Positions 1 through 32,739 of a stretch of DNA of 64,000 nt are shown here, piece after piece. A model generated the notes under the pieces. That model did not search any database, was not told the origin of the DNA, and worked only from the letters and a program-made list of their open reading frames with translations. Every line of letters begins with the position of its first letter. Positions within the stretch are counted from its first letter, which is position 1. The stretch is from Kudoa neothunni (Eukaryota; Animalia; Cnidaria): NCBI GenBank assembly GCA_964304625.1, contig OZ199839.1:8278560-8342559 (forward strand), read 5' to 3'. Position numbers and translations under genes: made by a program.

Positions 1-3000
1 CAATGATCACCTACTTATTGATGAAAAATATGTTATGCAGAAAGATGATTTGCATAATAATAAAGGACAAAAACTATACTACCCATACCAGAACGTTGTT
101 GTTGTTGAGAGTCAAGATCCGAACGAGTTAAGTTCAAACAGTGACTTTGAACTTGATAAATCTGTTGAACAGATTGAGGTTGTTAACATTGAACAAGTTG
201 ATAAACAAATGTCGACTGTGAGAGCCCAGACGCTCGATGTCTCGGTTAATCCTTGTAACATTCAGGAAGATAGAAATCAACTGGAATATTCCACGACTCA
301 AAGTGATACTTCTTTCTATGAAAAAATTGCGGATAATGATACTTCCTTTGAATCTGCTCCTAACGTAAACATATTCTCCTCAAAAAAAGCAGATGGGGGC
401 ACTTTGATTGAAGGAAAAACGCCGACTGATTTAAATGTTGGCAGCGATAAGGGTCATGCATACCGTATCATTGATGTTGATAACGAAGCAATTACGTTGC
501 AGCAAGCTCAAATTGAAACTAATGAGGTTACTGAAAAATTAACAACTATAAATGAAGATGTCTCTGTGGTTATTGATAAGGAAAAAGCTATGGAAGCTTC
601 GAATAGTACTTCCTCTGAGAATGACTATTTGGAACATTCCACTATTCAAGGGGACAGGACCGCTCATGCACAAAAAGATATAGATGTTGATTTGAATGAG
701 GTGATTTCCGTCTCTAATCAAGGCGAATTTGGCAATCTAACCGGGAAGGCAACCACTGATGAATCATGTTTGAGCGAAATGCATTCAACATCAATAGATG
801 AAATAGACGTGAACAAAAACTTAAACGAATATGAGATAACGACAGTCCATGAAGAGGAAAGCTACGTCAAAAGCCAAAAATTGAGAGAGGGTTTACAGAC
901 GTTAATCGAAGAAGTAACTGATATGGCTATGATACCTGGAAGCGTCACGTTAGAAAATGCTGACCTAAGTCAAGCTAACCTATCCTCTCTTCGCGATGAT
1001 GTTAAAAAGAGGATAGAGGATGCAATCCACCGGAGGTCAAATGATGCAGAGTTTATGGAAGGTTTACAAGAAATTGTTGAAATGGGACGAGATGACTCTT
1101 GGAATTCTGCTGCGGAGGAATTCAAGGCTGTTGAAGATGGACTTGATCATATTATCTCGAATGTTGGACCCGATAATGCGTTACCATCTAATCAACTAGA
1201 CGACTCATCTTTGGAACATCCTAATGAAGAGGGTGAAAGGCTGTTGATTGTGACATCTTCAACTCCAGTTAAAAAGGTGATTGGAGAGAACGAAATGTCA
1301 GCCGTAGACAAATGCACAAAACGCCTGGACTTTGATGAATCAAATAATGAATATGATCAGAGAAGAAGTTGGGATAGTCAGAGTCAGCCAAATATCCCAG
1401 GAAGTTTGAGATCCGTAGCATTCCCTTTGATTGATAAAAAAATACAACCATTAAAATCTAGTAGTATGTTTTCGGCATCATTTGTTGGGAATGACAAATC
1501 AGTTGATTCGAGCGATTTGGCTCAAACTAGTATTGCTGTTGATACCAATATATCGTTTGACAATACAAAGTTCTATGAAACACTCTCTGGGACCGATACT
1601 CAACCACAGAGTGATGATACTGGCACAGTTTACTGCGAAATTTTTGTTAACAAAACCAATATAGACGAACAAGAAAATAACTCATCTGATCTTGTTGAAA
1701 TAAGTTTATTGGGCAAGTATTTACTGGAAAATGAAGTAGGGGATAGAGCCAAAAAGTCGGTTACATCTCCAAAAACTCAGTGTTTATTTTTGGATGACAT
1801 ATGGCAGGAAGCTCAGAATAAGAGATCCAAAAATTCTATACCAGAAAAAGAAATGTCTTTCCACTCAATCAACTATGTAAACAGATCGCTCGAAAGTCTA
1901 CATGAAGAATGTGCATATGGATATGAAAAACTTTTGATTGACCCCTTCTTTGAAAATAAGAATTTGTATTATATGCACACTCATTTGTACAAATCGAATA
2001 TTGGGGGCAAGTGTTGGTCAGCAGAGAGGCCTCCTTTCTTAATGCTTGTTCGTAATGAAACTGAAGAAAGGAGTGACGCCGAACATGTCTCGTACATAAC
2101 TAACACAATACCTGATTATGATGCTATTTGTTCATCCATATCGATCCTATCTTACTTCTCGTTTCTTATCAATTGTTTCAATGTGGTAGATTATCATGTT
2201 GTTTTGTAGGTTTATGTATTATTTTTTTAAGAAATACTGGAGCATTCCAAAAGTTGTTGTGAAATCGAGGAGCGCGTTAGATGAAACAAGTTATCCTCAG
2301 TTATCCCAAGCATCTTCCAATCTGCTGAGTGGCGAACGGTCTATCAGCTATGAAAGTCTACTCAATAATATTATGACTGGTTACAAAACCGATGTTGAAA
2401 CAAATTCGTTCTCTGAGACACGTTTTGAACCAACCTCCGAAAGAAAAATGCGTCAAATGTACCCAAAATTAAAAAGACTCGAGCACACTTATCTCTCTCC
2501 CATTAGTGTTAGTTGGGTAGTATGATTGTGGAATAAAGTGGATTTTAGGTTATTCATCGCAAAATTCGAAATGAATCGCGTACATCATTAGATTATTCCC
2601 CAAAAGCCTCTAGAAAAGACTCATATGAAAATATTACGTATAAATAAATTTAAAACATGTGTATAATGTTAGAATAGAGCAAGGGTTAGTTCTCACCGCA
2701 ACGATGATTCAAATCTTGATTGGGAATCAAGTGGAAGGTTGAGTTGTGGCAGTAACTTTTTGGATTTTACGTGTGTGCAGTAGTTTTGATTATGGTTTTA
2801 GTTTCGTTGAAAACACCTTCAACTTTCATTCGTTCTAGACAAAATAAACTGAGTAGATCTCTTCACGACAACCAGAAAAATCTTTCTTATAACGTTAGAA
2901 ACCGCCCATACCAACGCTCGAGGTCAATTATCGATAAACCAAAAACCAAGATAGGATTCGGAGAGAGATTTTCTTGGAGTGGAAATGTTAAGGTATTTTT

Positions 3001-3507
3001 GAATGAGAAAAAATGTTGATTGAATTTGAATATAGAGTAAAAAACTCCAGTCGAAAAAGGGAAAACATTTAGAGGTAGGTTTTTTTGGAGACAAATAGCG
3101 ACTCTGCTTGACTCATATTGCGGAGCTGGATTTTATTTGTTATGAATTAACTTTGTAACTAAGTTTGTTGGCTTTAGACACGTGAATCCTTATGCGGAAG
3201 ACGAAGCCATGAATGCTTGCTATTTCATGAAGGGGTTATCACATTCGGGAAGAGATCAATTTTCATTCGAGTATCAATATAAAAACTCTCATTTTTATAA
3301 AATTTAATAGAATTTTGGAGATACATACATGGTAAGAATTGGCGGTGGATGGCAACCTCTTGAGCAGTTTTTAGAGAAACAACGAAAATATAGAGTAACT
3401 CTAGGAATGATAAATTCTCCATATTGATTATAATTTAGAATATCGATGAGCTTGAAAAGAAACTCCGAAAAACTCTCAGCTCAAACGTACTGAATCCAAC
3501 TGAATGA
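1..3507 (+). CDS. GAS2-family protein, 3' part: long acidic low-complexity exon, several short exons, C-terminal GAR domain (5' end outside window)
   Basis: Frame is open from the window edge through ORF 35..2209. Downstream exons are separated by short GT-AG introns. Exons at ~3180-3400 read GVITFGKRSIFIR|NFGDTYMVRIGGGWQPLEQFL (GAR signature VRxGGGW). Last exon NIDELEKKLRK...PTE ends with TGA at 3505-3507. That the acidic exon and the GAR exons belong to one gene is inferred. Confidence 0.75.
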
Positions 3508-6500
3508 TCCTGACCCAAAATCAACCTATTAATACTGTTTATCAGATTTTAGTACTGTTTTCTGTTTTGCTGATAAAATAATATTTTATCGCAACAGCTC
3601 ATTAATACTTTTATATCAATATGAGGTCTAAAAAATATTGATTTCAAATTATTTAAATGATTATTGGGTCAATTCTAATAATATTTGAGTTTATTTCTAA
3701 TCATGACATGTTTAAGTTACCGGCCTTAATTTTAGTTCGACGAAACAATTTCAGATTAAAATATATTTCCAGGCTCTATCATTATAGTTATGCATTTAGG
3801 ACTTTATCTGTGATGTTTAATAACACTCATAATTAAAATTAACTATGATACACTAAAATTTAGAAAATGACTATTATGAGGAATCTTCATAATATTTAAG
3901 AATTAATTTGAACCATATTTAATTATTTCTTATGAATAAGAGCGTAATGATGAATCAAACATAATCAAATATCAGATTCTAACGAGTAGCTGTTCATTTA
4001 ATGATAAATAGGAGTTGGTATAATTGATAATGTCGAAGCACATACATATATTCTACTTGAGATGAAATTTTTTAGCCCAAGTCAAAAAATAATCACGAAA
4101 TATTTGAAATCTAGCGTATTTGTACAAATATGTTAGAAGACAGTAAGGATTCGGCGACATTGAGAAGGTTAATAATTGCTAGTTTTAATAATATTTTTTA
4201 TGGATATGGCATTAGCCAATTTTCACTTTATTATTTTATAAATAAAATGTATTGGATATTTTTTTAAATATCTAACCTAGTAAAATTTAACTTCATTGAG
4301 TAGATTATACCCCGCATTTTTCGTAAATATAATCTATAATTCTTGAAAGCTTTAATTCAAACCTCGCTTAAAAGTTAGGCTTGTAAAGATTATACATACC
4401 TTGCGAAACTAATTTTTTAACAGGATTTATTTTTAAAATTTGTTAAATATAATGTAAGAAATATTTTTGGTTCAACTTGACAACCACTCTACAAACTGAC
4501 AATCTTGATGAAAAATTTGTTCTTGATTCCTTGGCGCGTATTAAATTTAATGAATTTTTCTGTTTACATTATAACAAAAATTTACTTGATGACTTGAGAA
4601 TTTTGTTGTAAAACGAATTTTAAGGGTATATTAAATAATCTCTTTTTTATTACTTGGGAAATCTAGGGGCTTTGATGAAACCTAATTACTTTAAAGAGTA
4701 ATCTATAAAAAAATGAAAAAGTGCCAATTTAAATATTAACTATAATTTAAACAAATTTTTATATAAATAATTTTCTTTTTTAACTTCAGCGTCTTGATAA
4801 ACTTACCCTTGATTATATTTGAGTCTTCATCGCGTAGTTCTCTGAATATATAAAAGTCTAATATTAATAAGGAATTATCGAATGGCTTATTTGTTTTTTA
4901 TTTGCGAGAAGAACTTGAAATTAAACAGTAAAACCACATCGATATATCCCTCCGCAGCTATTCTACTGTAGGAAGTGACTGTTCTTACGAGACCGTGTAA
5001 TCCCTTCTCGAGGCTGTTTATTCGTACGTCAATGAATATCTTTTTTCCTATTTTATATATTTCAAGTCTGAATTTATAAACATGTGATTACATTTTTTTC
5101 CTTTAAAATTTTTAAACTTTATAAATTAGTGTTTTAGTTATCTTAGTTCATAAGTTTTTGGCATTATCCTTTGCTTTCGACCATTTAATGAAACTAAAAA
5201 TCAATTATTTTTCCATTTGTGGCAGTTTGGGCATATTTGAATCAAGGGTTTTTGCTAATTGTGATAACGTAACTTTATTTTCATCCAAACCTTTTGGTCC
5301 ATGCGGCAATGTTACGGCTCCATCTGATTATTGAGAGCCTGACTAAGTCTAATTTTAAGCGCATTTTGACCTACAATACTATTTAAAAAGTTGTTTTTTT
5401 AAATTAGGAATATAAATCGTTGTGTAATTTTTAAATTTTTGTCACCTTATAAATTAATCCTACCTGTATGACACGCGAAAAAATGACGTGTGTACCGATG
5501 GGCTCCAATTTGGACCAATGATGAAATCGATTATAAATGCGACCAATTATTAATAAAATAACGTGATAATATTTAAGGTATTTATAAATTGGTTAAATCT
5601 ATCCCTCTAATGTAGCTTTTAATGCAGATATAAGATCGAGATAGACTGATCGAGTTGGACCAGTGTGGTGGAGACTGCATAAGTTTCAACACCAACGTTT
5701 CCATTAAAATCATATCTAATGAAGTTGGGAATTAATTTTATTTTAAATGTAATTTGCATGTAAAAATGTTAATTTTAATAGTATAATTTAAATTAAGTTG
5801 ATGAATATACTGAAGAAAAAAAGATAAACCAACATAATATTAAATGATAATAATGTTTTTGCCTGAGTAATTGTAAATAAATGTATAAATTAAACAACAG
5901 CTCATAATAAATATAAAAGTAACTAATTTCGAGACATTCATAATAATTTTTATAGACACACCCATTCAATCCTAAGTCAAGTCTGTGGGAGGACCAAAGA
6001 GCAACAGATTAACTACTGTTGGTTTTCCGATTAAAAATCATATTTTTGATAAAAAATTAACGGATTATAAAAATTACCGAATATGAGTCCCTGATTATGT
6101 ATTATGATTTATATTTTTATGTTAAATAACATTCATTATGAAACAGGGAATACATTTTTTTCGGCAGGTCTATTTTATTTAAGATTTTTAAAACAAATCA
6201 TCAATGTTTGCTAAGTTATGTTGTAAATATCCTATAAAATTGATAATATTTCATTCGATTAATTCGTATCAGACTGTAGCATTGACACGTGAGCTAATAG
6301 ATTCGGATGAAAGTGAAGTTAAATTATCATAATTGGAATAAATTAGTGATTTCAATATACATAAATTGTTATAAATATCAGAATAATTAGTTGATAGTCG
6401 TAATAAATAGTTGGAAGGGAGGAATAATGCCAAAAACTTATGAATTAAGATAATTAAAACGTTAATTTGTAAAAAATAAAAATTTTGTAGGAAAACAATC

Positions 6501-7249
6501 TAATCACATGTTTTTAAATATCTAATGTAGGAAAGAAGATATTCATTGTCGTAAGAATAGCCAGTGCCAATTTTAACCCTTCCGTCAGGTGTGTTGTCCA
6601 GCCGGACCTCAAACTCATAATTATTTGATTTTCTTATTACAATAAACAACAGCGACTTTATATACACCATGTAATCTTTCAATTGGTTGAAAAGTTTTTT
6701 TTTGCATTTAATCTATGAATTATTATAAACATGGTGCTTCCAATTTAGCCGAACAATCTGACGTTTTGTTTTCAGGCACATAAGCATGAAAAATATCAGA
6801 AATTTTAATATATTTATATAATTTATATTATTTCAACAGTTAAACGTTAGCCTATTAGTCGTGAAACTTAACCAATCTATAAAATATTAGTCTTAGCATA
6901 CCGATGATTGGATTAGGGCTCTGTTTGATTTTATTGACTTTGAAAGTGTATGTAGTAAATATTTTTATTGAAAAGATATCGTTAATTTTTAAGATATTCT
7001 TTGGGGAGATGATTATCATATCGACTTGTGACATTCGGATAAAAGTTTTGATAGTGATGTTGACTTTGGAGTGTCCATGCCCAAAGGGACTTATTCCAAT
7101 ATTTTAAAATTTATACAAAAGAGGCCAGAGAACAAGGCATTTATAAAATGATTGTATAACTTCTTGAAATTTTTAATTAACACTTTTCTAACATAATATG
7201 CAAAAAATGTCCATAAAGTTTTAAAATTGCTTAATATAGCATTAACACA

Positions 7250-9918
7250 AAACCTTAACGATTACATTTATTTAATCCGAAATCTGTACAAAGGATGCTG
7301 ATTTGGTACGTAAAACGTAAATATCTGGGGGGGGGGCTTGTGTTGTCACGCAATCTAAAACAAATTGACTTTAAATTACTAGTGACTTGATTTCTGTCAT
7401 CAGAGTTATTAATTTTTGATGACATTATATAGCTAGTAATAAACAATCACATTTAAAAAGTTGGTGCGTGTTACGCCAATACAAAGACATTGACTTTTTA
7501 TAATGAATAATTTGAAATATCGATTCTATGTTTTGTAAATAGATTCAATATTAACTTATCATCCAATATCATGGGATTTAAACTGCATCATGCCAGGAAC
7601 TTGATGAACCCCACATCGGAACACACGTTACTTTTGCGAACGCTGTCCTTCGAGGGTTAAGGGGGATGTGTCGTATAAACAACTTCGATTTTTCCCCATC
7701 GTTGCCAACTTTTTTTTTGAGAATGGAATTAATCTGAGGTCGTTGTCCTTGGCGAGGTCATCCTTAACATTCCTTGATCGTACTAGGAAAACCGTTCGGA
7801 AAATCATAATGATATGGATCAACTAACTTTTTTAGAATAAGTAACGGTGTACTTTTCCCATTCCTGACCTTAGACACACACATTAAAGGGATTGTTTGAA
7901 TCATCTGTGATTGGAAGAGGACTTCTCTTTAGATGATTAAGAAGGATTTTTTTGTCCCCCTTCCTACATTAGAGGATCCAAAAATTCCTTAACTTTTTTG
8001 AATGAGGTGTGGGATACAAAATTTAAATTAAAGAATTTCAAAGAAAAATTCGACCCAACCTTACGGCGGGGTTTGAAGTCTATAGGAGACATAATTTAAC
8101 TTTTGTAATAAATATGATTGATGAAACTAGAAATGTCATCATTTGACTTGGCCATTAATTTTTTTATTATTAAAACCCATTTTATGGAGTCTAACTTAGT
8201 TAGCTTCAAAAGATTCTTCATTTCTTTTATGACGTCGCAAATGTTTGGTATACGGGATAATTCCTCAAAATATTCTCGACTTTTTTGGCCAGAATACTCC
8301 CTTTTTAATGAACGTATTTGTATGTCGAGCTATGCGTCCATTTTTTGGGATGTATCCCCATTCATTTTTTAGCTCATCAAACGCCGATCATTCATCCCAT
8401 TTCGTTACGTACACTAATTCTTGTTGATAACTCAAACTTAGTGTTAGATCAATCTAGTTAACGTACGTTAAATTATCAAATAATGTTTTCTGATTTTTGA
8501 GAATTATCTGCGAAAAAAATTTATTTATTTTCTTAAGCATAATAGAATAAGAATTAGCCGACATGGGCGCCCGGGGGATCTTGGAGATATTTTATAAGCA
8601 TATAAACACACAAAATTAATATGAGCATAAAATTTTACATGTTTGGATTGTAAAAAAGGTTACGTATAACGTATAGATTATAGTTCAGCTCGTAGACTAT
8701 GAGTTGATCTGAGTTATTCGTTACTATATGGGATTTGGAAGATATTCTGTGGGTATAAGGAGTTAGATCCATAAAATTTAAGTTATTTTTACTTGTCAAA
8801 GGCGCCTCTTAACGATTTATTCATAATTCCTTGCTGTCCACATTTCTCATCAGTTTGATTAACATTTTTGTTAAAGAGTCGTCGTATACGACTTTTTGCA
8901 GAGGATACATTTGTATCGTGTCTGTTTGAGTTATGATCCCACAAGAGGAGTCATGCCATGAAATCATGTCTCTTCTTGGAGTAAAAGTACAATATAAGTT
9001 GTTTGAGTTGTGTTTCTTTCTGAGTCTTTTTGCATAAACCCTCCAAGTTGAGAAAGTAGCTGCTTCTTTTACGATACAATGTGAGGAAATTGTGTATATT
9101 TTGGGCCACGTAAATTTCGGCAATCATGCTCTTCATAATCTCCTCTATGAAGGAGTTACGGAGGTTTTTAGAGGAGTTAATGATTGGTTGGATGGTTGGG
9201 TAATCAGAAGATGGGTGTATATTTCCATTGATTGTTACTTCGTTTATTGTGGGGAGCGACAAATTAATTGAATTTTCTGCCACGAATATGGCTATGGGGT
9301 TATCTTTATAAAGTATTAGTGTTTTTTTATGTAACCATTGTTGACTTTCTGGTGGGTGGCCTTAATTGTAATAAGTATGAGGTTTTTTTAAGTGTCTATA
9401 TGCATCTAAACAACCACGTCCCTCTTTCTAAACATTTTAATTGACATCTTTTATTTGGAAAAATGAGTTTCGAACAAGAAAAATCTAAAGATTGATAACA
9501 CCAGAGTAAACCAACGACTCTTATTCGTTTTTTGTATACATTCTTTCCATCTTATGGAAAGAGTCTTTTAGTTGAGAGTTGTGGAGGTTATAGGAAGTAA
9601 GCTGATAGAATTTTCTTTTAAATGATAACCCGAAAATTTGACAAATCATTTCCTGGATTTTTGTATAGACTCAATTCTCATTTCAATTGAGGATCCATTT
9701 TCAAGGAGGGATTATGGGATGATATTTTTTAAATTCATTTTAATGCCCATATCGAAATATGGGACTATATGAGAATCCCCGGCATGCACTCAAATATGTT
9801 GTGTTTCGATTTGTTTGATTAGGTTGTTGTAGGATGAGATGGATTCGTAACACCCATAATAGTCAATGGCGTGTATTATGCTTCCTTTGTTTAACGCATT
9901 TATTTTATATGGAGTCAT
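7250..9918 (-). pseudogene. Decayed AEP (PrimPol-type) primase + Zn finger + D5-like SF3 helicase gene; probable endogenous DNA-virus/Polinton-like remnant
   Basis: Manual minus-strand translation across stops and frameshifts. VPYFDMG (~9745-9765, AEP motif I hhhDxD, G one substitution from D); KDSFH (~9554-9568, motif II SxH); DVN*NV*KEGRGCL (~9410-9450, motif III region); C-KKTQ/KK-H-NSNNLY...WHDSSC (~8941-9033, resembles PrimPol C..HKSNN..CHDxxC); V*G..RNGKST.LLILKKL (~7820-7875, Walker A); LKKKVGNDG..CLY (~7670-7705) and KFLA*CSLIP (~7570-7605), resembling D5 motifs. No introns apparent. Confidence 0.7.
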
Positions 9919-11131
9919 TTAAGTTCGTATGAGAATTCGATAGAAACGAGGTTGCACAAATGCTTGTAGTACGTTAATTGCGGGGGGAAGTAGTCAATTG
10001 ATTTTCCCCACACGCTAATGTCTATTATTGATCTTTGAATGAAACTTGGATTCGTGCTTATTGGGGATATACTCATCGTTTATTTAATATTTGTAATGTT
10101 GAAATATTATTTAACACAATATGTATTAAAATGATCAACTTTCCGAGCGCTTTTGGGGTCTATTAAACCCCAAGCCATATTAAAGGTTAGTTTTTTGCCT
10201 CCTTCCAATGATCTAAATTTCCTAAAACTGGGTCTATTCTTGTCAAATTTCTTACACTATATGTCTGCCAAATAAGTTTTGAATTATCTTTAACAAATGA
10301 AAAATAAAATAAAAATTATACACTTGATGTTTATAGGGTCTAATAGATCTCACAATTTTATTTTATCATATTATGTATAAAATTATAATAAAATGGAATT
10401 GAGGATATGAGCAAAATCAATCAACGAAATAAAGAGAAAAATGAGAAATTCTTATTCTTATAGACATAGGATCAACGGCAGGTAATCGCCAAGGAGAAAT
10501 TTAGACAATCCATCAAAATCCTAGTTGTCAAACTTATTTCTTACAATATATAAAGGCTGCCAACTCGATTGAGTATTGGTGCCTTTAACAATAATTACGA
10601 GAGGCTAGGAGTTAGATTTCATCTTACAGAAATTATTATTGAGAATAAATAGAATGCCGAAAGTAATGTAATGGTGATGCAACCCTTATAAGCACAGAAA
10701 TTATAATAATAACGGATTCGTTTTTGTCCGTTGCGGCTTATTTGGATTACTGTCATCTTACTGCAATTTATCTCAAATTTATTATCCGACTTAAACCTTA
10801 AATTAAAAGGTTTTGTTGATTTTTTTAATTATAATTGATTGTTTAATTAGATTAAAATTTGTTTTTAATATTTGCATTACAGCTTCCCGTTATATTTTAA
10901 ATTTCTTGGCTTATGAAAGAAAGAGACAATTTTTTAATGTACCACGTAATAATGAAAATGCTATCTAATGTACATGATAACATTAATAGTATTATTTTTA
11001 ATTGGTCAGTAATTGGCCTTTAGTAACGGAATTATTTGATAATTCGTGACTAGAAATATTCACTTGATTACATTTCGTGACATTGAAGTATCCACTTAAA
11101 ATAAAAAAAGGTGATTCACTAAGTTTAAATA

Positions 11132-11201
11132 CAGTAAGGTCTCGATATTGGGCAGTAAAAGTCCAGGTCCCGATTTAGTGCGCAATATCGAGACCTTACT
11201 G
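11132..11201. mobile_element. 70-bp MITE with perfect 19-bp TIRs (pogo/Tigger-like), TA target duplication
   Basis: TA-CAGTAAGGTCTCGATATTG ... CAATATCGAGACCTTACTG-TA, a perfect inverted repeat. Confidence 0.85.
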
Positions 11202-14200
11202 TAAATAAAAAAATGTGATTAAACATTAGTGTTTGAAGTTTTGGGGGATCTACGTAGGAGGTAATATAACAAATTTTGATGGATGTGGTATTAATAATTG
11301 ACTCCATTCCATTCAATTCTGATTATTTACATAAATATGATAAGCGATTATTTAATATACATAAGTTATTTACCCTATGTGTGCCAGATATATGCACTCG
11401 GAGGAGAAATTTTTCGTCCAAAGACAAACAGGTAATAGACAGGGTGTGGTAGCTAAAAAACCAAATCTGTATATAGACAGCTTGTGATTAAGCTAAAATT
11501 TAGAGGGATTAAAAATTTCAAGTGTGCAAGCGTACATGCCTTAAAGGACTAAAATATACCATGCGAATAGTCTGCGCTTTTATCATTACAGAATGGTTTT
11601 GTTACGCGAAAAAAGTTTTGATTCATGAGGAAAACCGTGATAGGGGTTTTGAGTTTAAAGAATTTCAATTGGATACCGCAATATGTTGTTATTCGTGATG
11701 CTTCTAAGTCCGACATGAAAAGAATAAAATATTAATTACTTGTCATATCGAAATCTAAATGTTTCATTTCGTTTTTTGAAAGTTTTCTTTAAATATAACT
11801 GATTTTTCTATCATTACAGAAAATAATGCTAATCTAATATCCGATGTTTGAATGAGAAGGGAATATTAATTAAAAAATTAAAAGCCTCCTTAGGAATGTT
11901 TATTCCTTACTATCTTTTTTTATAACGTTTCATTGTAAATTATCAAATTTAATTATGTAAAAATGAGAATACGTATAAACAAGAAACAGGTGTATTGCAT
12001 TTTGTGGAAAATACCGACTTTAGTTTGAATGGATAACAATGCAACAAAATACTTTCAAAGTAATTTTTTAATAAAATTAATTTTTATAAATAATTTACCC
12101 TAAAAAATTTTATTTAATCCGTAAAACTTTCATAAAGATAACCCGAAAAAGGGGGTATCACTAATCCGGCATCGCAAAAAATGGATTAAAGACGCCCATC
12201 GGAAAACGTTCAAGACCGACAGTGTGCGGTTGTATTAAAATCGTAAAGCGTTTACATTTTAAAAAGTTGTCATTTAATTTACCATTAACTCTAATACAAA
12301 AACTTTAATATTAACTCTTAATGGACCACCATGTTTTCCGCGAGCTCAAGAACAAGTCTGGGCTTAAATTGGTTAAATATCGTTATTAGCGCGATTAACA
12401 TTTAAGTTATATTGCATTGTAAGGCCTTAAAAAAATAAAACACATTTTCATTACGTAGAGTTACTAAAAGTACAAGTAATGCTGCTTAAAGAGTGTTCGG
12501 TACAGTCGTTCTTATGGCACTGGCAACAAATCTGTTTGCTCCCGCGTGCGACATTAGATGTAGATGAACAAAGCTAACATAGCCTTCTTTTATTTTCATC
12601 TTTGTCGTCATTGTTTGCGTAATGAATATCAAAATCGTATCCCGAGATTTACATTGAACGCTTTAAGGTCACCTGGAAAGAAATTTTAGGATTTTACAAT
12701 CTACTACTCTGTACATCTTTTATCAATGATACACCCAAATCATCTTCAGAACTCTTATTTAACACATTACTTTGGATAAAATTTTGTCTAGATCGCTCGA
12801 AAAAAATACTTTCACAATCAGGCGATATTTTGATTAACATGCAAAAGTGTGTTTGAAATTAAACAAACCAAACGAAGGATTTCATTTTTAATTAATGCCT
12901 GCATTACATGCTTAAAATTTCTCAAAATGAATTAAGTAATAATTAAATTTTTTTGAATTTATGTGAAATTTGGGTTTAAAATAATGAAGTTTTGGGGTTA
13001 TAAACACAATTTAATAGGTGGGGGCTCGCGGAACCCAAGTTGATCCATTAAGGGTTAATTAGTTAAGCTCCTATTTTGAACAGTGATATTTTCCGATTCC
13101 TTTTAACATTAGTTCTAATAGGCTTATTGTTGTAATTACGGCTTCAATAAGTTTTGTAATCGTAATAAATATACAATAAATGCATAAATAGTATTCATAG
13201 TAAATATAAAATTTTCCAATTTATTCAAAGAAACCTCCAAATTACTAGGGTCATAAATGACCTCAACATCCCAAGGGAATTTACCCCAGCATCGCCTATC
13301 GATAGCCTAAATAAAATTTTAAATCTATTATGCAACTATCTTGCCACGTTGCGTTGCACCAAGAAATGATTATTATATTATTAGCGTAAGGAAAGAAGAT
13401 TTGGCTTATCAACAATAGGATTTTCGCTATTCGAAGGGTCGCATCAATAACAGTGATTATTAAATAAATATAGTTAAAACCTAACATTATTTTTTAAGGA
13501 GTTGGGGAAATTCATGAGCATGCCTCAGGATTCTTAAATAACATAAATCTCTCAATAGTATATATGTGAAGCGAGCGTTTTAAATCATTATTTCCGATCA
13601 AGAATTGTTGTTGTTAATGCTCAATTAGGAATTTATCTCCCAGAGAATTATTTATGAGAGAAAATGTAATGCGAAAGTTAAGTTTGAATAATGTGAAGCT
13701 ACATCATCTGCAATCGTGACCCTTAACTGATGTGAAAAATTATATACAGAAAAAAAGATTTAATGATAAATCACCATCACTGATTCAAAAAAGATTAAAT
13801 TTTCTTTTTAATTAATTGTTTCTCTCTGTAGACAGTTTCAACTACTCTAATAACTATACGTTTCTTTTTCCTCAATGAGCTTTTAATTTATAAAAGAATT
13901 TTATTCACTTTTCAAAAATATATGGATTTTTAATTTAGTGTTTACTACGGTATGACAAATTTTCGCCAACAGGCGCGCTCGTAGCATTGGTAAAATTGCA
14001 CGCACAACACAGCAGAGGGATAAATGCTATAATTCAACTCTAATGATCAATTATTTTGAAGGAAATCACTCAGTTATAGTGATATTTTTAAGTTTTCTGA
14101 CAATTATATCGTATACTTCTCGTTCAATATCCGTTTGATATTTATACCTTTTCAACCTTGATACTTCAAATAATGTCTTAAATTATGTCTTAAATCAGGA

Positions 14201-16411
14201 AAATGAGAGAGGCAATTTAGAACAGAGTAATTTTTTGTGCTCTATAGTCATATTTACGAAATTTGTCATCTCTGTGACAATTACCTTCACTTATAAAATC
14301 ACTAATATTGGCGACGTTTTCAATAGTGTTTCAGCCCCATACCTTCACTAGTTTTGAAAAACTTTGTTATTTCATATTTCTCTTTGAATGTCCTAACTCA
14401 ATTTTCATTGCTATCATCCATTTCGCCATTAATCGAAAACAAAAACCTCAACGCACCTGAAAGGTTACGAACCACACCGTCACTACAAAATAATCCATAA
14501 AAAACATAATTAATTAAAAATATATTAGTTGTATTATTGACGGATCAATATAAGTTTTAAATAGCTTGAGAAATAAATAAATTATTAATATCTCATATTT
14601 TTCTCAAATTACGAACTACACGTCACCCACTGTATATAAACTTTTGAAATCCTCGAGAAACAATGACATGAGTTTGTATAAAGGTTATCTTTATAACAAA
14701 TATATTTTTATCGATATTAAAATAACACCTTACATTACTTTTTTTAAAAACAACAAAATTGAATATTTAATTTTACATGTTTAATCCTGGTCAAATATTC
14801 ATCAGAAAACTTCAAAAAATTAGAGTATATAGTCAATATAAAAGTTGTGCTGAATTTTTATATTTGTTAATAAGCACATTTGCTCCCGTATCAATAGGCT
14901 TCGTTGAAGACGAGTACGAAAAAGCATTTAAAGAAAGGAAACGAACTAAAGAATATTAATTTATCTTCATTTTTTCAATATTTTGAAAGAACTACCTAGA
15001 AGGAACCTATTAATCAACTGAATCTTGCAATGCTGATTTTAGAGTCATGGTCAATATTACGTTCACATAAAACCATTTTGGGGATTAGAATCAACATTCC
15101 TGACGCAAACAAAACTTATGTCTCCTGGGTTAACAACTTCATCTGGAAAATTAAAAGTAAATTTTGTGCGCCTGTCTGTTGGGGAATTTTCGCCGTAGGG
15201 TTTATTACTCATTACTCATTAAAAATCCAAAAATCGATTGTACCATCCATAATAACTCTTGTTTTATATTATATTAAATATTATTGAAGTGATCGCTAAG
15301 ATGTTTCAATATATTGATAAGTGAGGTTCTCTACTGCGTGTTATTATTTTATTAAAAATTATTAACCCAAACCATAACAGGTTTCTCATTCATGAGATCA
15401 CATCATTAAAATGGAAACTATATTGATAAATTATGTGTATGTAATCTAACGTGTTCTCGACCACGTATACGAATTGCGTTTTTAATGATTCCAATTTGAT
15501 TAAGCCTTTTAATTAGCTTAATCTGGGAATACATTAAACTTTATTGATATTTTGGAGATCTCTCATCATTAAATAATATGTATAGTTTCTTCAAAATATT
15601 ATAAATTTCCTGCTTTTTATTTGCGGCAATAGATACGCTATTCATTAGGAAGCTCCAACTCAAATGTTCATTGCGCGTGCTCGTATTTACTAACTAAGCC
15701 TTGCCATTTTCATTTTTCGTATAAATATTTAAGATCAAATTTTTTAAATCTATTTCACATTATTTTTTCAAAATTCAATTTTATCACTATGATTTAAATA
15801 CAACGGAGTTCAGTTGATATCTCGACTACCCGAATATTATTTTGATGGCCCTAAGTCTTTCTATTAAATTAATGCGATTTTCGAATAATCACATGCACTT
15901 TTAATTAGATCTCATATGTGGGGATTAGATAATTTTATTTTCGGTTAATTACTAATAAACACTTTAATATTCCCCTATTCTGTCAAATACACAACCTTAA
16001 TATTTTATCGCGTTGATTAAAAATGTAATGAATATTAAACCAATTAGTTGGTTGACGTCGATTAATGATTGAAACCAATTTTTCACTATAAACAAATTAA
16101 GATTTTCTTAATTTAAAAGCTCTTAAAACTTATTCGAGATGAGAGGTTAATTGCCAGGTGAGGGCGGATTGAGCTGGAAAAATTTAAACCTCGTTTCTAC
16201 TCTTCTGGTTGGTTTGTTGACGTTGGGTTGATCAATATATATTTTTTCTTGGCAAATATTTTCATTTTTGTACAACATTATCAAGGTAATTATATTTGTT
16301 TGCGTGACAAAAAACTGATGATAAAATGATAATTACTATCGGCTAAGCTTAATGCATGACTTAGTGAAATTAAGAATTTGGTGCTTATTAAATCAACTAG
16401 ATAACGAAGTT

Positions 16412-18678
16412 ATGGAAAGAAAAGGTAGTCGCCTTGGTAGGAAATCAAGTGAAAGAAATGCCATATTTGGATTTCGCTCCAGCAAGATAGGTAGTGATTT
16501 TATGGTGAATAACATTGTTGAAAATGAGAATGAACTAATGCAACTTATGGTGGAGGATTTGTGCCAATGGATGACTCAAATAGTTGGTCAAGGTATGGAG
16601 ATCACTCCTAATAGTTTTTTCCCTCAACTGGAAGATGGTGTGATTTTGTGTCGTTTGGCAAATTCCATTCAAGAATACGCAATCAAAGCAGCTAGTGACA
16701 GCAAAAGCGGACTACTAGGGAAAAAGATTAAGTTCAAGTCAAGTAACCTTTGCAAACGAGATAAGAGTAAATTCCATGCCCGAGAAAATGTGAGCAAATT
16801 TCTTGAATGGTGCCGATCCCACAAGTAAATCGAATAGGGATGTGTGTATTTGAAGTTGAACTATTTTGTTTGTTTAGCATTCCAAGCCCAATGCTTTTCG
16901 AATCTAATGATATCGTGGTAGGAGGCACAGATGGTGGACGAGAGGTTATTATCTGTTTGATGAATCTTGCCAAAAAGTTCTCTATCGATTATTATGTACC
17001 TGCGCCTGAGATGGTGAAAGTTGAAGTGGAAAATGAGATAAAGACCAAAAAAACGTATATGCACTAACATTATCAAATAACTTTTCTTCAGAAAGATCTG
17101 AGTTTGCCGAATACAATATTAGCTATCACACACTTCGAAACGAACGGGAAACCCACGAAGAATCATTGAATTTGGCTGATAATTCTGCCGCTAGTTGTGA
17201 TGGACCTAATTTTGAGTCTCGAGGCTCATATCATTTTGGACACTTTTCGGATAAAACTAGCGGAACTGAGCTTTCAGAGAAAAATCTTAAATCACTCAAT
17301 AACCTTATTAGTGATAACCCATTCGGTGATGGTGTGCAATCACCAAATGTGAATGTCACAAGAACCCCGGCCAACGATATCCAATCTTTCACTGAAAGTG
17401 AACCTCAACTAACACCTAATAAAGACAAATATGATCTCCAAAAGGTGAATGATGAACGACTAAACCAATCTGAAGATCTTATCAACTTACTGAAAAGTCC
17501 TCAAAATCCCTGGTCGATACCGACGAGGAGAGTCGCGATAAGAACCCATTTGTAATCCAATGTGTAAGCGATGACATTATAGACACGGTTGCCAGGTGAG
17601 CTAATTTAAGGGGTACTCATTTTAAATTTAATCGTTTCTGACTAGATACAGTGATGTTGACTAATGATAAAAAGGGGGAAACTTTAGTTGAAAGTAGTTG
17701 ATATTATGTAGATAGATTGACTGTAACTTTCGTAAGTGGAAGGAGTTTTACTTGAGGAAGATAATTTATTTTCAGCCCCCACACCATCACGACATGTCTT
17801 TTACTCCGCTGGTAACATTATTTATTAATGATTAGTTTGATTTGTCCATTTTTATATTAGAGAAGGAGGGAACTGTTTCGAATTCTCCAAATACTTCAAA
17901 TAATGTGTTTATTGATAAACCTGCTGAACGTACAAAAACTCCAGCTTCAACCGACCTAAGTGATGATGAGTTCAAGACTGAAAAAAATTATTTGACCAAA
18001 GAGATGGCCGATATCATTCTTTCCGGCGTGACTGATTCTCACTCTATTACGAACGAGTCAAAAAAGGAGGACATTGCACACAGTAAAATACCCTTCGCTC
18101 CATCGTCTGAAAGTTGTAAATCTGTGTGTGAATATCATATTTGTGGAGTGAATTGGTATAAAAAATCAATTTAAATTATTCTTTTAGAATTGTGCAAAAT
18201 CTTTCGGCCAAGATATTTCACATGGAGATTCCGCCTATTTGAGCGAGACTGAGTTTTTAGGGAATGAAAAAATCCAATCCTGTCCTCCTTCGTCTGTGGA
18301 AGATGATTTGAACAATCTGAAAAAGGTATCAAATTTTATTGAGCCCTACTTGCTTGTTTGTCCAACCACTAAAATCTTCTAGTTCTGCCATATCATACGA
18401 CAATCTGGCGTCGGACAAGAAATACCCGTGCTAAAGTTTGTGTGTATTCAACTTGGGGAAAAATACATATTTATGAAGGTTGAATTTAAGATATATTTTG
18501 TTTGATAATATTAAGATGAGTATATTTGATTATTATATATTTTCATTTCTAGAAAATCAAAGGTCACATATTTGTTCGTTATAATCGCCAATGGCTTCCG
18601 TTGGATGCCTTAATTAGGGATATCACTAGCCCTAATTCGAGTGGTAATCCCACTCAGCCAACTTCATCTCGTCAATAA
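16412..18678 (+). CDS. GAS2-family protein: CH domain, acidic/Ser-rich linker, degenerate GAR domain; multi-exon
   Basis: CH domain FFPQLEDGVILCRLAN...ARENVSKFLEWCR|..IPSPMLFESNDIV. 3' exons read EKYIFMK|KIKGHIFVRYNRQWLPLDALI, stop TAA at 18676-18678. Apparent frameshift near 17480-17510. Confidence 0.75.
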
Positions 18679-19320
18679 TCATGTCATGACTTATTCTCAA
18701 TTTCCAATTGACGAGGAATATACTTAAACTAATCCCATTACTTATTCATTGACTGAAACTACTCAAAAACTATTTTGATGCCTTAAAATTGTGTTTATAT
18801 TTGTTGGGCCGCAATATCTAGCTCTAGCAGGAATAAATAATTTGCGTGGTTACGGTTTCTGTATTCGTTCAACCAAATACACTTATAGAGGGTTTTAGCA
18901 ATTACCCTAGGTTATTTGCAAATTATGTCGATGTAAATATTATTAAACTTATTAGATGCTTCCATGGGGTTTAATCTAAGTAGGTGAATACTTAGTGATC
19001 GTTTTGTTGATTCTACTATTCACATATTGGTTATACCGAACTGTGAATTAAGTTTATTTCGGTTAGAATATTGTTAAACAAAACAACCAAAAGCTGTGTC
19101 AACAATTGAAGATAATAACAACTCCTTAAAAAGCTAGTTATTTATCATATTCACCTAATTAATGTATGAGATCCAAATTCTATTGACCTATACATAGGTG
19201 TTTAGGCTGGGTAATAGGATTAAATTTTATTTCTTCCGCAATTGAGAATTAGTTATCAATAATAACTGGTCGAATCACGATATTATCATACTGGCGAAAT
19301 ATTAATCTACCTGAGCAAAC

Positions 19321-22035
19321 ATGAAAAAACTATTTCCATCGCTCTACGACACAGAAAAAGTGAACAAAATCCAACAACCTTCCATCCAATTTCGAAAAGC
19401 CGAGTCTCATACCAATTTCACTAATGTTGAAGTGGATATTGTCAACACTGATAATAAAATTTTGCAAATAATGATGGAAGACGAAACACTATGGATCAAT
19501 TCGTTGGTCGAAACGAGTGGACTGAACGTGGGGAATTTTTTCGAAGTATTGAGAGATGGGGTTTTATTATGCCAATTGGGAAATGTGATCGAAGGAATCA
19601 TCGTTGAAAAATCTAATTCTACCTCATCTAAAAGGGACTTGTTGGGCCACTTTAGGCACAGTAATGTTCCACAAAATTTTATCCAATTTAGCAAACCGGC
19701 TAAAACCTCAAACGAGTTCAACAAATTTCTCTACCGAGATAATGTTCATAAATTTTTACAATGGTGTCAATCACATCAGTAATTTTATCATCATGGATGA
19801 AGAAATGTTGATTGATCTTAACATTTTCAAGGGTACCACAATCTGTTCTGTTCGAATCAAACGATTGTGTGGAAATAGATGGTGACGGTAGACGCACAGT
19901 GGTTACAGGTATCATGAACCTAGCCCGCTTTTTCTACTACAAATACAAAATAACACCTCCAGCTATGATTCAGGCCGAAGAAGACATTGGTATAAACAAC
20001 GAAACATTAGGTACATTTTGGTGTACTTTTGATCAAAGTTGTATTTGAACTTGTTAGGAGAATCCAACGTTGAAACCAACAATCAAGTACAATGAATTAA
20101 TGATGAGGTTTATAGATGTATATTCATGTAGGAAACAAAATCCAAAGTCACTCCTCAATTTTCCGAAGTGTGTTAATAAGTTCTTGGCTATTTATAATTA
20201 TTTTTGTAATAGGTTCAAAATATTATGGAAAACTATGATATTGGTAATCACGAAGTTGTGATTACCGACGGAAAAATATCGGTGAACGATAAATATTTCC
20301 TAATAAGAGTAATTTCATCTCTGTGCTATCAGTCATCCATCTCAGCCTTTAAATAATCATTTTTTATAATATTTAAGATTGAATAAAAGATATTTTAAAA
20401 TACAAATTTAAATATACTAACAAAAAGAGGCTTATATACCTTCTATGTTGATGATTTCATATTGAAATAAATATGCCATTAAAAAGTGCAATAAATTTAT
20501 CTAGATATTTTAATATATTTCAAGAGATAAACGAAGCGGGTTTAAGTGTGCTATTGACAAAGAAACAAATTTGTTTAAAGTCGATACCAATAATTATCAG
20601 CTTATAGTTTTATCAATATATCTCATTCACTAAAAATGTATATATTTATATAATTTAACTGTATTTTGATGACAATTAAAGTTATTAAAGCATAAAAATT
20701 TGTAATTAAAATTCCATTAATAATATAATCCTTCGTAAAATCTAGGTAACGCAAGTTAAATATAATTTTGCTTAAAAATCAAAGAATTATTTTTATGTGG
20801 ATTTCATAAAGGGATCACTAGTGGATTAATATTTTGTTAGAAAAAAATTTGATATTTTTATTTTCATATATATTTGATTTTTTTATCTGTGGAAAAAATA
20901 ATTTATTTAAATGTTTATACACGCAAAATGTAAAATTTATCGATTTATTACAATTTTATTTGATCTTAAATAATATTATATTACAAAGATTTGAATAATA
21001 ATGCATACTCTTACACAACTTGTCAATGTGTATCGATATGATATGAGACGGAGGAACCAATGATTTAATTAATGAACTTTATTGATGTATTGAATGTATT
21101 AGAAAATAAATGAACATTTATTGGTGAGAGTTGGTGGTGGCTGGGAGCCGATTGAAAACTTTTTGATAAAGAAATTCAAAAGAAAAAGTATATAGATAAT
21201 TGTATGGGATGAGTTGATTTTTAAAAGTAGTTCATTCATTGACCGATGATGTATTTTGTAACCCTTCGGATGTGCAGATCGGTAGAGCAATTTATAAATG
21301 TAGTAGCTATGAATATTATTTAGAGGAGGTGAATCTTCCAAGCCTTACAGTGTTAAACTCTACCAAATTCGGTACTGAAAACGACGATGATTGCTGTATA
21401 AGACTAAAGTTGAAACTATACGAACATCACGTTTTTTAGATAGTGACTTCAAGAAACTACTGATTTCAAAAACCGCCAGTAGCCTGATCTATAGAACTGA
21501 TATGAAAAATGATCATGTTGAACTGTTAGATATAGTTTGTAATCAGAGTGTAAAAACATTAATTTAGGGTTAAGAAAGACCCTTTGGTTTTACGAAGTTC
21601 CGGGTTTATTGAGTAATTTTTCCCATTTATATTAAAATTTTGTTTATTCAATTTTAAATGTTTAAGAATCGATGACAATTATTGCCACAAATCGAATGAC
21701 AAGAATCAAAATCTTAAAGGTCAGCAATTTTTTAAGTAAAAAACCAATAATGTTTTAGTGCCTACGCGCGATAAAGTCACACAGCCCACGTCTGCGTATA
21801 TTTATTTTGAGTGAAAATTTAGTTAATAGAAAATTTTAGCACTCCTCGAAACAACATATTAAGGTAACTAAAGATTACTATTTTTAAATAACAATCCTTT
21901 AGCTTGGAAGTGTTGAATCGATATCTTGAACGATTCGAGAACATCATTAACACAACCAACACTCAGAACTCGTCTTTATCTATGTATAGAACCTTTCAAA
22001 AATACACCTCTTGTAAAAATAAGTACGTGAATTGA
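19321..22035 (+). CDS. GAS2-family protein (CH domain + canonical GAR domain); multi-exon
   Basis: CH domain FFEVLRDGVLLCQL...YRDNVHKFLQWC|VPQSVLFESND, with the same intron position as the upstream paralog. GAR is split by an ~0.8-kb intron: KYFLIR|KINEHLLVRVGGGWEPIENFL (exon from ~21103). Last exon ...KNKYVN* at 22033-22035; the 3' exons are less certain. Confidence 0.8.
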
Positions 22036-27699: not shown

Positions 27700-30600
27700 C
27701 CATGAAAGAAAAATAATTTACAACAATTTTGATATATAGATAATATTCGATCGAGAGAAAACAGAGATAAATTGAAAAAACTATGTATACATTAAATACC
27801 TATCATTACCGATGAGTAAAACACTGCCATAAATGGCTTTGAGTGTGATATTTTGAATAAATTTTATGATATATTTTGATAATTTGGTTATTTACATCAT
27901 TCCATTATTTTTGAAGATAATAAATGCTATCGAAACATATTCGAAGTTAAGGATGGTGTTAATTGGTTTTCTTATGCTTCAAACAGAATCACCTTCTTAG
28001 CAGGAAATAGATTCCTCATATTTTATGATGAATCTATTTTCTCAACTGCTATTCCAAACATTAGCAAGTTTTCCAACTTTAATTATCCAAATTATTTGAA
28101 GACTTGTCAACAAAAGATTTATTAGCTAGCTTATTTGAAAATCCATAATTTTATTCCCATTGTTAAATTTAATTTAGGATGACTCAAATTGCTTTGGAGT
28201 ATTAGAATGCGAGGGGGTATTTTTCGAAAGATTATACCATTAACAGGTCAATTCAAATTTCGTAGGCTATTCATTATGAAGATTTCAAAAAGAGAGAAGT
28301 TTTAAGAACCATAAATAAGTTCTGCCGCAGTTATGATATTTTTGAGGGTTGGAAAGATTGTCGTTTCGAACTTTATTACCCCCAGGAGAGTTTAACCATT
28401 GGTGAGCAGCTATCTACTTCTAGGGAAAATTTCCCATTGGACAGTATACATAGTATGCATAGTATGCATAGTATACATGGGCTGATAAAAAAATATCGAG
28501 ACTTTTTAAATAAAAAAATATATACACAAATCTAATGAATTTTTTATCTCCCTCAAAATACTCTCCGTCCGCATCAATACATTTTTTCCAGCGTTGCCTC
28601 CACTTAAGGAAGCATTGTAAAAATCATTTTTTTTCAGTGTCTTGAGCTGCTCCATCGCATTCTGTTTTATTTCCTCAATGGAGTGGAATCTCCTCCCTTT
28701 TTATTGGAATTCAATTTCTGGGAACATAAAGAAGTCGAATTATCCAACGTCTCGAGGAATACACATAGGGTGGTTTACGACGAATAGCATCCCGTAAATT
28801 CCGCAAAACTCTGAGATAATGGTAATACTTTAATTTCACACCAAATTTCATCACCTATTACGATACAATTAATGAATTCATCGTCTATTGATGCCCGTTG
28901 AAGTAGATCTTTTGACGTAATAAGCCGCAATTCTTTTTGTTCGGACGTGAGCATTCGCGGGGAAAATTTGTCAGCAATTCTTCTCATATTAAGATTAGCA
29001 GTCAGAATAGCTTGACATGATCCAAACTATCAATCGAATTTCTACCTTCTTTAAATCGTTTATGCCATTCAAACACTCTATTTCTACGCACGGAATTGTC
29101 TAAAAATGCTTTTTGAATCATTTCATAAGTTTCGGTACTGTTTATTCCTAGTTTTACACAGAATTGAATACAAATTCTCTGCTCGTGGTTTCTGACATTT
29201 TCGAAAGCGACGTCGACCCATTCCTCGACTTAAACAACTAGCTGCCATATTTATTTTGATATTCATTGTTAAATTATTTTGCACAAAAATATGCGAATAC
29301 ATATTTTTTATAACATTCTATTGTTTTAAAATTACATCTTTGTTATACGAGGGATATTTAAAAAGTCTCGATACTTTTTGATCAGTCCATGTATGCCGTC
29401 AAAGTTGGCACTGTACGGAATTATGTATTTTCACCTTACCAATCCAGGGACCGAGTACACTCAAAATTTTTCTGTGTATTTTGATAAAGATAATAATGAA
29501 ACGCCAAAAAATGTTGTCGCGAATATTGTTCTAGACCTTGTGTCGACATTAACGGAAAGTGGTAGAAATATCATTTATGATAATTTCTCTATTTCTGTGT
29601 TCGTTGCCCAAGAAATCTTACACGAGGAATGACTGGAACAATCCGAATTAATCAAAAAGATATTACAAATTATTTAAAAAGGAATTCACAACAGGATGTT
29701 TCGATGCATTTTTGTTTAATCGAAAACTAGTCCCAATCTCCTATGCTCCTTCAAAAAGTAAAGCAGTTTTACTACTAACAACATCCGATTTCATTACAAA
29801 TGTTGAAGATACAGACTGAAAACACCTGTTGTTGTGTCTGGAAATAATCGATGTAAAGGAGGGGTAGAAAAAAGGATTATATTATTGCTACAGCAAGTGT
29901 AAAAAGCAGAAGAATCGATGGCTGGCAGCAGCATTCTTCATTATGGATGGTAATAGCATGATTTATTCAATTTATCCTTCTAAGACAATTTTCTATGATC
30001 ACAATTGTTCAAGAATTAAGTTTATAGAAGAGCTTGAAGATGGTTTGGCGAAGGATTATGTTCAGAGAAACAAAAATCGTGTTGATAAAAGTTATAACTG
30101 CATAAAAGAATTTCTTTGTCGCAACCGAAGCTGTTATTGTTCAAGATTTCGAGACAGAAAAGCGAGGAAATTTTTGTTTTTTTCGTATAGCCATCTGCAA
30201 TGAAAGCAATTCAAAAGTTGTTTGCGTGACATATCATGATATTAAAAACCAAAATAATATTAACATCTTGCATTTTATCTATTTTTAAACAAATGTATTG
30301 CGGGTATTATTGGGGGATTCATCGTGAAGGAAAGTATTTTTAGGATTTCTTTAATGGGGACTAATGTACAATTTTTATTAAACTCCGTTAGATTAAAAAA
30401 AGAAGTTAATCTCGTTCAGTTTGACGCCTAATTTATCCCTTTAAATATTTCGGCAATGGTCGTCAACACTCGTTGGTATTATAATTGTAACATTTTTCAA
30501 TATTTTATCAGTAGTTTTCTCTCAAACTTTATTATCTTACTTATTACATTTTTTCCATAATTATTGCGAAAAATGTGGGGTTTATTAGACCCCAAATTAT
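27700..30600 (+). mobile_element. Decayed piggyBac transposon interrupted by a mariner insertion
   Basis: Fragments YPQESLTIGEQL..(GQ)Y | MPSKLALYGI, GRNIIYDNF and NRCKGGV match piggyBac DDD-transposase motifs. GGGGTTTATTAGACCCC subterminal palindrome at ~30577. Boundaries approximate. Confidence 0.75.
28476..29391 (-). mobile_element. Internally deleted mariner element with intact TIRs and TA duplication
   Basis: TA-CATGGGCTGATAAAAAAATATCGAGACTTTT ... AAAAGTCTCGATACTTTTTGATCAGTCCATG-TA. Remnant transposase: PRMLTSEQK, IVIGDEIW (TGDETW-like) and C-terminal RWKKCIDADGEYFE. Confidence 0.9.
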
Positions 30601-32275: not shown

Positions 32276-32739
32276 AATAATATGCGTTTGTTATTTATAC
32301 ATCTTGTTTTATTACTACGGTGGAATTTATGATGCGAAATCGGCAGTTGTGTTGAATATTGATATTTTACAAATTTTTCTCCAAATAAGATATTAAATAA
32401 TAAAAACTACATCAGTAAATAACCATAATTTTCTCTCAATTTGAGAGATTAAATTTTTAACTTTATTGTTGCAATTTATTGTATATTACAGGGCGTAAAT
32501 CGAAATATTTTAAAATTAGTACGTTTATTTTCGATAATTGATAAATGTGTCTAGGAAATTATAATATTAAGCTGATTGACATATTATTTTTGTTAATACA
32601 CTAATTGTTAAAATTTTAAAATATTCAAATAAGGTGGGTCACAAGACTTTTTTTGTTGAGAAATGGAATGTGAGAATAAAAAGTTTGAGAAACACTGCTG
32701 TATTGAGATTGAGATTGAGACTGAGACACCACAATAAAA

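Follow-up and report, generated by a model that had tools for sequence, protein, structure and literature searches.

AEP-D5 fusions have been described in nucleocytoviruses and Polinton-like viruses (PLVs), in passages of two earlier papers (PMC4889955; PMC11296320). For the poxvirus E5 protein, an AEP-ZnD-D5N-SF3 architecture and its Zn ligands are set out in parts of two others (PMC11196578; PMC12137749), and a C-terminal UL52 finger is attributed to the NCLDV-herpesvirus AEP clade in a portion of a further study (PMC4538821). Relics of such viruses in cellular genomes are also on record. Excerpts from PMC5294986 report nucleocytovirus core genes isolated among animal genes in Hydra, Exaiptasia and Daphnia, and excerpts from PMC13533422 report endogenous Mycodnaviridae genes in fungi; together with passages of PMC12247965, the latter describes Mycodnaviridae as endogenous and persistent in zoosporic fungi, the hosts of the metagenomic members being unknown. 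The order Mycodnavirales was proposed in 2026, with a host range predicted to be fungal according to sections of the proposal (PMC13524828).

For most families of giant viruses the host has yet to be identified, and few approaches other than the study of endogenous fossils allow one to be assigned. Full-text searches of the literature returned no account of a D5 form with a UL52 finger, nor of such a fossil in a myxozoan or any other animal; the same holds for passages of 10.1101/2025.04.19.649669 and PMC12344493, and the locus or its lineage may be listed in supplementary files of the bioRxiv EVE survey. Here we describe a broken gene of this form at 7250..9918, on the minus strand of the window (the whole stretch of 64,000 nucleotides that was analysed), and compare it with intact viral proteins.

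Intact fusions in environmental giant viruses

Relatives were fished from sequence collections with degenerate patterns for the Zn finger and for a D5 motif. In-frame loci with long fused ORFs made up 3 of 37 and 1 of 42 in the first two finger-pattern scans, and further in-frame yields were 106 ORFs from the third scan, 103 D5 ORFs from the D5 motif, and all 25 of 25 metagenome loci. Of the intact proteins recovered, those closest to the broken gene are fusions of ~950 residues from environmental giant viruses, which consist of an AEP, a Herpes_UL52 Zn finger, D5_N, and an SF3 helicase. Family 1 (~950 aa; Pfam Herpes_UL52, D5_N, and DUF5906) has the finger spacing C-x6-H-x17-C-x4-C and 483 database matches at E <= 1e-10, the 120 listed being 56-88% identical. 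In family 2 (~880 aa) the finger is spaced differently and the linker is shorter. Other groups recovered were stand-alone primases of ~375 residues, which we take to be of the A468R type, and D5 proteins of the PriCT-2 type.

Six carrier GVMAGs were looked up in the supplement of PMC8575486, where three are listed, one as IM_02 and two as IM_18. In passages of PMC13524828, these two groups, formerly placed in Imitervirales, become MY_02 (Mycodnaviridae; IM_02) and MY_03 (IM_18), both within the proposed Mycodnavirales with their predicted fungal hosts. The family-1 N-half as modelled by AlphaFold (pLDDT 91.9) best matches human PrimPol (Z 22.9, rmsd 2.2, 204 aligned), followed by pox D5/E5 (Z 14-15) and HSV UL52, including its finger region. 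The best PDB sequence match of the helicase half is ASFV C962R (E 5e-29), and the top BFVD match of family 1 is A0A1X9VNP7 (UniProt), from Mimivirus AB-566-O17.

Several further arrangements were seen among the fished loci. Two AEP-Zn finger-D5 genes occur in one viral genome or contig in four cases (L099+L219, L101+L223, L097+L189, and L131+L144), as family 1 plus family 2 or as two members of family 1. L299, L317, and L320 are divergent fused members that are GC-rich (50-55%) and 26-27% identical to family 1; their contigs reach up to 32 kb. In L318, L319, and L313, other N-terminal domains are joined to the same Zn finger; L319 is a finger plus DUF5906 helicase without D5_N, and L313 runs on into another helicase-like region.

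A decayed primase-helicase gene on the minus strand

The gene is a single exon for which no introns are needed. Its 5' end is an ATG at 9918, where the profile alignments begin (at profile columns 1-13), and its 3' end is uncertain, the last aligned base being 7568 and an end at ~7100-7250 being expected from the length of relatives. The first-pass annotation had reported AEP motifs I-III, a Zn finger, and NGKST in canonical order, and translation recovered all of them in that order, spread across all three minus-strand frames from 9918 to at least 7570. The aligner's path through the gene takes 13 frame shifts and 8 stops, a count that depends on the path. The gene is dead: it makes no protein function now, and none is evident for the host.

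In the primase half, PYFDMG lies at 9762, within an AEP motif Ia/I region containing YFD (9742..9797, minus strand) that matches family-1 columns 43-74 (0/100 permutations); motif I is degenerate, in that its second acidic position is not acidic. Motif II, KDSFH, starts at 9568 (9554..9568, minus strand) and matches family-1 columns 112-129 (2/100 permutations). The motif III region (9387..9445, minus strand) is split by a frameshift and contains stops, reading VN*NV*KEGRGCL at 9445 with a better continuation in another frame, LFRCI at 9413, and it resembles the family-1 pattern DxSVYREGLFRTIYSSK. Motif III was placed as a block in the ordered-block test below, and was not recovered alone, either by hhalign on the motif II-III frame or in the permutation test of single regions.

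The Herpes_UL52/PrimPol-type Zn finger (8941..9034, minus strand), C-x6-H-x-SNN...HD-xx-C, is assembled across one frameshift from C at 9034, HNSNNLY at 9012, and WHDSSC at 8958, with W at the third ligand position. Its first gap, earlier read as C-x5-H, is six codons plus one base. Three of the four ligands stand at the family spacing, in a test that is partly circular because the relatives had been fished with a finger pattern. A region in the D5_N position (8000..8400, minus strand) has the right position and length and is colinear, being weakly alignable and not significant alone. In the SF3 helicase core (7568..8017, minus strand), the Walker A sequence NGKST is found at 7862 and the K-x-L-T-G equivalent is ILKKKVGNDG at 7724. 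These are 48 residues apart, whereas all 14 intact proteins compared have 65, and because the ~17 missing residues follow Walker A, Walker B is not recognisable. The motif previously given as KFLxxCSLIP is present, with KFLA*CSL at 7602, but reads KFLA*CSLNP; SF3 motif C could be placed at either 7686 or 7602, and the position of the Arg finger is likewise ambiguous.

Traces of coding can be followed independently of homology. The cheapest path through the stops and frameshifts of 7250-9918 cost 27.8 on the minus strand vs 37.6 on the plus strand, with 36-52 in 32 flanking tiles and a mean of 39.4 (minimum 30.6) in 100 shuffles. Residual coding potential is present on one strand only, and it runs 1.4 kb beyond the Zn finger. 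In an ordered-block test, 13 blocks were picked solely because intact viral proteins conserve them, and were then chained within set spacings; none of 200 shuffles, 100 other tiles, or 200 order permutations attained the observed score of 42.0. Ten of the 13 blocks were placed. They covered, among others, motifs I-III, the latter part of the finger (its second half), and Walker A; one finger block fell off-site, and the last two blocks are ambiguous.

Frameshift-aware profiles were built from intact viral proteins, with X written at every break. The first, from the close-knit family 1 with strict gaps, gave 19.5 bits, which is within the tile background. A diverse fused profile gave 41.8 bits over colinear columns 13-752, from the ATG at 9918 to 7697, and this score was matched by 0/40 and 1/150 permuted profiles; host tiles with higher raw scores reflect a composition effect, being equal to their permuted controls (z <= 1.5). 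In this setting the parts were not significant alone (AEP 73/200; post-finger 12/150, also 36/150), and with the finger neutralised 4/100 controls reached the score. The score of a broad D5 helicase profile was reached by 0/100 shuffles and 0/60 permutations, and a forward-algorithm version, run without composition control, ranked the locus first, second, and fourth of 38 tiles for three profiles.

The separate parts scored best under a third and loosest gap setting applied to pre-chosen regions, and were not significant under stricter settings. Here, the family-1 primase core without the finger scored 44.4 (0/80 in three controls) and the helicase core 37.6 bits (0/150 in each of three controls). 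The finger-free primase-core run is a cleaner test than a block run in which one of the two finger blocks is dropped. With other profiles the primase core gave 19/80 for family 2, 80/80 for the A468R-like group, and a weak 1-2/80 for the PriCT-2 D5. By hhalign, the Zn finger matched at E 1.9e-4, with the same circularity as above, Walker A at E 0.004, and motif I at E 0.08.

Taken with the spacings given below, the locus is very probably a fossil of an AEP-finger-SF3 gene, and the block and profile tests support the first-pass proposal of a decayed gene of viral type with a PrimPol-type AEP, a UL52 finger, and a D5-like helicase. Pfam sees nothing relevant in single frames, whereas frameshift-aware profiles of viral proteins match.

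Spacing and similarity point in the direction of family 1. The distance from motif II to III is 42 residues in the fossil vs 42-50 in family 1, that from the Zn-binding His to Walker A is 382 vs 385-404 (261-292 in family 2), and that from H to the third finger ligand is 18 in both; the distance from motif I to II departs from family 1, at 64 vs 48-52. The fossil is 21-27% identical to 23 family-1 rows but 15-18% identical to the remaining 10, and in a FastTree analysis the N-half joins the family-1 clade with a support of 0.92 and a branch length of 2.07, in a tree and profile reference set that is biased towards that family (23/33 rows) and, for the tree, includes no PRIMPOL. The helicase half favours no group and is unplaced in the tree (16-28% identity). 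The fossil's affinity is thus probably to family 1.

The same measurements bear on a host PRIMPOL retrocopy lying beside chance helicase-like motifs, a case raised in the first-pass annotation that we regard as highly improbable. The AEP fold, the Zn finger of PrimPol type, and the intronless structure would suit such an origin, and retrocopies are common in animals. However, motif II to III measures 115 residues in human PrimPol (K165 to D280) vs 42 here, the helicase core scores alone and at the distance seen in viral fusions, and the coding potential continues far past the finger.

No standard search detected the fossil. Pfam hmmscan of the three single frames gave no relevant match, and neither a PDB sequence search nor tblastn against phages gave any. 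There was also no match among 5.8 billion proteins with the AEP/linker piece or the helicase piece, or among 1.84 billion representatives with the AEP/linker piece, no close relatives were present in IMG/VR, and the fossil was not detected by tblastn or hmmsearch with family 1. The best PHROGs match, to a virion protein over the linker (E 0.003), was judged to be chance. Because the searched pieces have no near relative in large protein collections, the source lineage looks unsampled, in keeping with the earlier suggestion of a remnant of an undescribed virus lineage.

Genomic setting and second copy

The stretch is present in four short-read runs, all from one sample. A single 3644-nt contig of short reads spans 6540-10185 and differs from the window by 2 substitutions and 2 one-base gaps; because it agrees almost throughout, at most two of the breaks may be assembly errors and nearly all are real, which largely confirms that the stops and frameshifts are genuine. 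This contig has a depth of 4.2 and reaches into repeats, neighbouring host contigs having depths of 3.7-6.6. The fossil, decayed and contiguous with host DNA at host depth in this one sample, is an endogenous viral element. Other contigs (depth ~8, two runs) match in colinear patches over ~6700-9430 that are separated by unalignable DNA, a pattern suggesting that the same sample contains a second, diverged copy.

These contigs also bear on whether the locus consists of chance motifs in AT-rich intergenic DNA, or of a contaminating free-virus contig, either of which is very improbable. The lack of a Pfam or database match and several negative part-wise tests would fit this account, but chance is opposed by the ordered-block, path-cost, and core-profile tests and by the colinear second copy, while a live virus is excluded by the decay and by the contig that connects, at host depth, with repeats of the host.

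GAS2-like genes lie on either side of the locus, and the 13 kb between them are rich in repeats. Its left neighbour is a host GAS2-domain exon (3320..3385, plus strand; PF02187, E 1.6e-5) and its right neighbour is a host GAS2-like CH-domain gene (16325..16828, plus strand; PF00307; best PDB match GAS2, E 5e-12). High-copy repeats flank the gene at 5008-7011 and 10137-10453. The latter repeat (10137..10453), which bounds the insert upstream, has a summed contig depth of 129-162 vs 4-9 over the adjoining gene, and loose contig ends at 10137 and 10453.

A 53-codon ORF at 9915..10076 (minus strand), which is cut off by this repeat, has a stop that overlaps the fossil's start ATG; it may be a remnant of an upstream viral gene, or chance. 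Downstream, a co-oriented stretch (6269..7103, minus strand) retains residual coding potential and is partly multi-copy, with an 82-codon ORF at 7103-6855 and a 147-codon frame with one stop at 6712-6269. Neither the ORF nor this stretch could be identified, searches of IMG/VR and PHROGs included. Strand bias in base composition is uniform from ~6560 to 10137, and together with the reach of the second copy and the overlapping ORF it suggests that the insert is somewhat larger than the gene.

At least three GAS2-like genes (CH and/or GAS2) stand in tandem, at 1-3440, 16325-18700, and 19315-20050. The remainder of the window holds ValRS, MoaE, DAD1, Sec1, and a four-Kunitz-domain gene whose linker is acidic and rich in Thr (56314-57809, minus strand), and the gene content of the window appears animal-like, judging from domain content. 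The low GC content and divergent genes might tentatively suggest a myxozoan; an exact look-up of one host protein returned no match. Transposase remnants of mariner, piggyBac-type, and hAT-like elements lie at 28473-30200, 32725-33850, and 53019-54107, the mariner having a Mos1 HTH and 40-nt inverted ends (28473/29394). A dispersed repeat family (42147-42603, 54980-55074, and 58900-59470) has copies that are 83-97% identical, in both orientations, and a multi-copy 86-nt hairpin at 11124-11209, with 36-nt arms and sharp loose ends in many contigs, is possibly a tiny transposon or a Helitron end.

Two candidate boundaries were considered and set aside. An inverted repeat at 5014-5315/6276-6564 does not enclose the gene. 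Its arms (5014-5315, plus strand; 6276-6564, minus strand) are 72% identical, each translatable and alike at the protein level, and belong to a multi-copy family (depth 40-60 vs ~6) with no database match; they might represent decayed genes of one family and not the ends of a transposon. A joint of 6820 to 14082, seen in three runs, might mark an insertion site but was not used as one, since a single inverted AT-rich motif is recognisable on both of its sides.

Neither the 15 frames of 1-16350 nor the 117 ORFs that were scanned yielded a capsid, a packaging ATPase, a polymerase (pPolB), an integrase (rve type included), or a tyrosine recombinase, and the window showed no further viral gene, including by comparison with 3275 ORFs of fetched viral loci. 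There are no terminal repeats around the gene, and decay could hide Polinton-type features. A Polinton-like virus, or another small integrating element with a D5-type primase-helicase that spread in the genome, is accordingly an unlikely source, despite at least two copies in the sample, a compact layout in which the upstream ORF overlaps the start, the partly multi-copy downstream stretch, and the PLVs with AEP-D5 fusions described in part of PMC11296320. Besides the missing terminal repeats and element genes, which tell against the transposon or Polinton-like origin considered in the first-pass annotation, the copy number is low, and among the sources of the best-matching intact proteins are giant-virus genomes in which the gene has ordinary neighbours.

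The source virus and comparison with known systems

We consider it likely that the broken gene is the dead D5-type replication gene of an unsampled NCLDV related to Mycodnavirales, which was likely captured in an animal germ line. By analogy with solved relatives such as pox E5, the ancestral protein would have assembled into a hexameric ring of SF3 type and unwound viral DNA, while the tethered N-terminal AEP would have laid primers, perhaps with a C-H-C-C Zn finger needed for priming as in PrimPol and UL52. Viral DNA of at least ~3.5 kb (~6600-10140) would have entered the genome, either in one integration followed by duplication or in two integrations. After capture in the germ line the gene presumably decayed neutrally, and host repeats may have overwritten its flanks.

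It is quite unlikely that the gene is instead the D5 of another large-virus group, whether pox-, asfar-, or iridovirus-like or of an unnamed class, with its likeness to family 1 reflecting shared ancestry and biased references. Poxvirus E5/D5 does have an AEP-ZnD-D5N-SF3 layout, the fossil's helicase half is equidistant from all groups, the PriCT-2 D5 profile scores weakly on the AEP core, and the profiles contained no pox, irido, or asfar sequences. Yet the ligand order of the pox Zn domain, C-C-H-C, differs from that of the fossil, many sampled D5s carry PriCT-2 instead of a finger, and the spacings fit family 1.

For the preferred source, an unsampled relative of Mycodnavirales, the order of the virus is not fixable from one gene, as D5 genes move between viruses and PLVs. 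On a biased reference set, the AEP half favours a D5 of family-1 type and the helicase half is uninformative; possession of this D5 type is a Mycodnavirales trait seen here and without a published definition. It is tempting to speculate, tentatively, that the fossil derives from an undescribed animal-infecting branch of Mycodnavirales, or a sister to it, that integrates in the germ line as Mycodnaviridae do. If so, a Mycodnavirales-type D5 in an animal would either extend the order's host range into a second opisthokont kingdom or bring to light a sister lineage not yet sampled, and PrimPol-finger D5 genes in this advanced state of decay would represent a hidden class of viral fossils that is missed by annotation-based screens. 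The locus also draws notice to a little-described D5 form, a PrimPol-like primase joined to a finger and an SF3 helicase, that bears on the proposed viral origin of PRIMPOL.

Of the described systems, the D5 proteins of Mycodnavirales (such as L021, L099, L117, L131, and L144) share with the fossil the domain order AEP-Herpes_UL52 finger-D5_N-SF3, in which the D5_N of the fossil is a weakly alignable candidate, as well as a similar finger spacing, inter-motif distances, and motif III pattern. The first-pass annotation had called a PrimPol-type finger ahead of a D5 helicase unusual, and it is indeed uncommon, but it is not new, as intact fusions of ~950 residues with the same finger spacing exist. 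Poxvirus D5/mpox E5 (OPG117), from animal viruses, likewise combines AEP, Zn domain, D5N, and SF3; set beside the fossil without direct comparison, it is shorter (785 aa), and its Zn ligands C282, C285, H290, and C314 (C-x2-C-x4-H-x23-C) are unlike the C-H-x-C of the fossil. ASFV C962R and the PriCT-2-type D5 of nucleocytoviruses share AEP, SF3, and probably D5_N with the fossil, but in them the UL52 finger is replaced by PriCT-2, which C962R carries and which was seen in place of the finger in many sampled environmental D5s. PRIMPOL and herpesvirus UL52 have, as the fossil does, an AEP with a C-terminal UL52 finger, but they lack a fused helicase and contain a long insert between motifs II and III. 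The UL52-finger form is therefore known intact in Mycodnavirales, and isolated endogenous nucleocytovirus core genes are known in animals. What sets the present fossil apart from those endogenous genes is that it is heavily decayed, is missed by standard screens, and is a Mycodnavirales-like gene in an animal-like genome.
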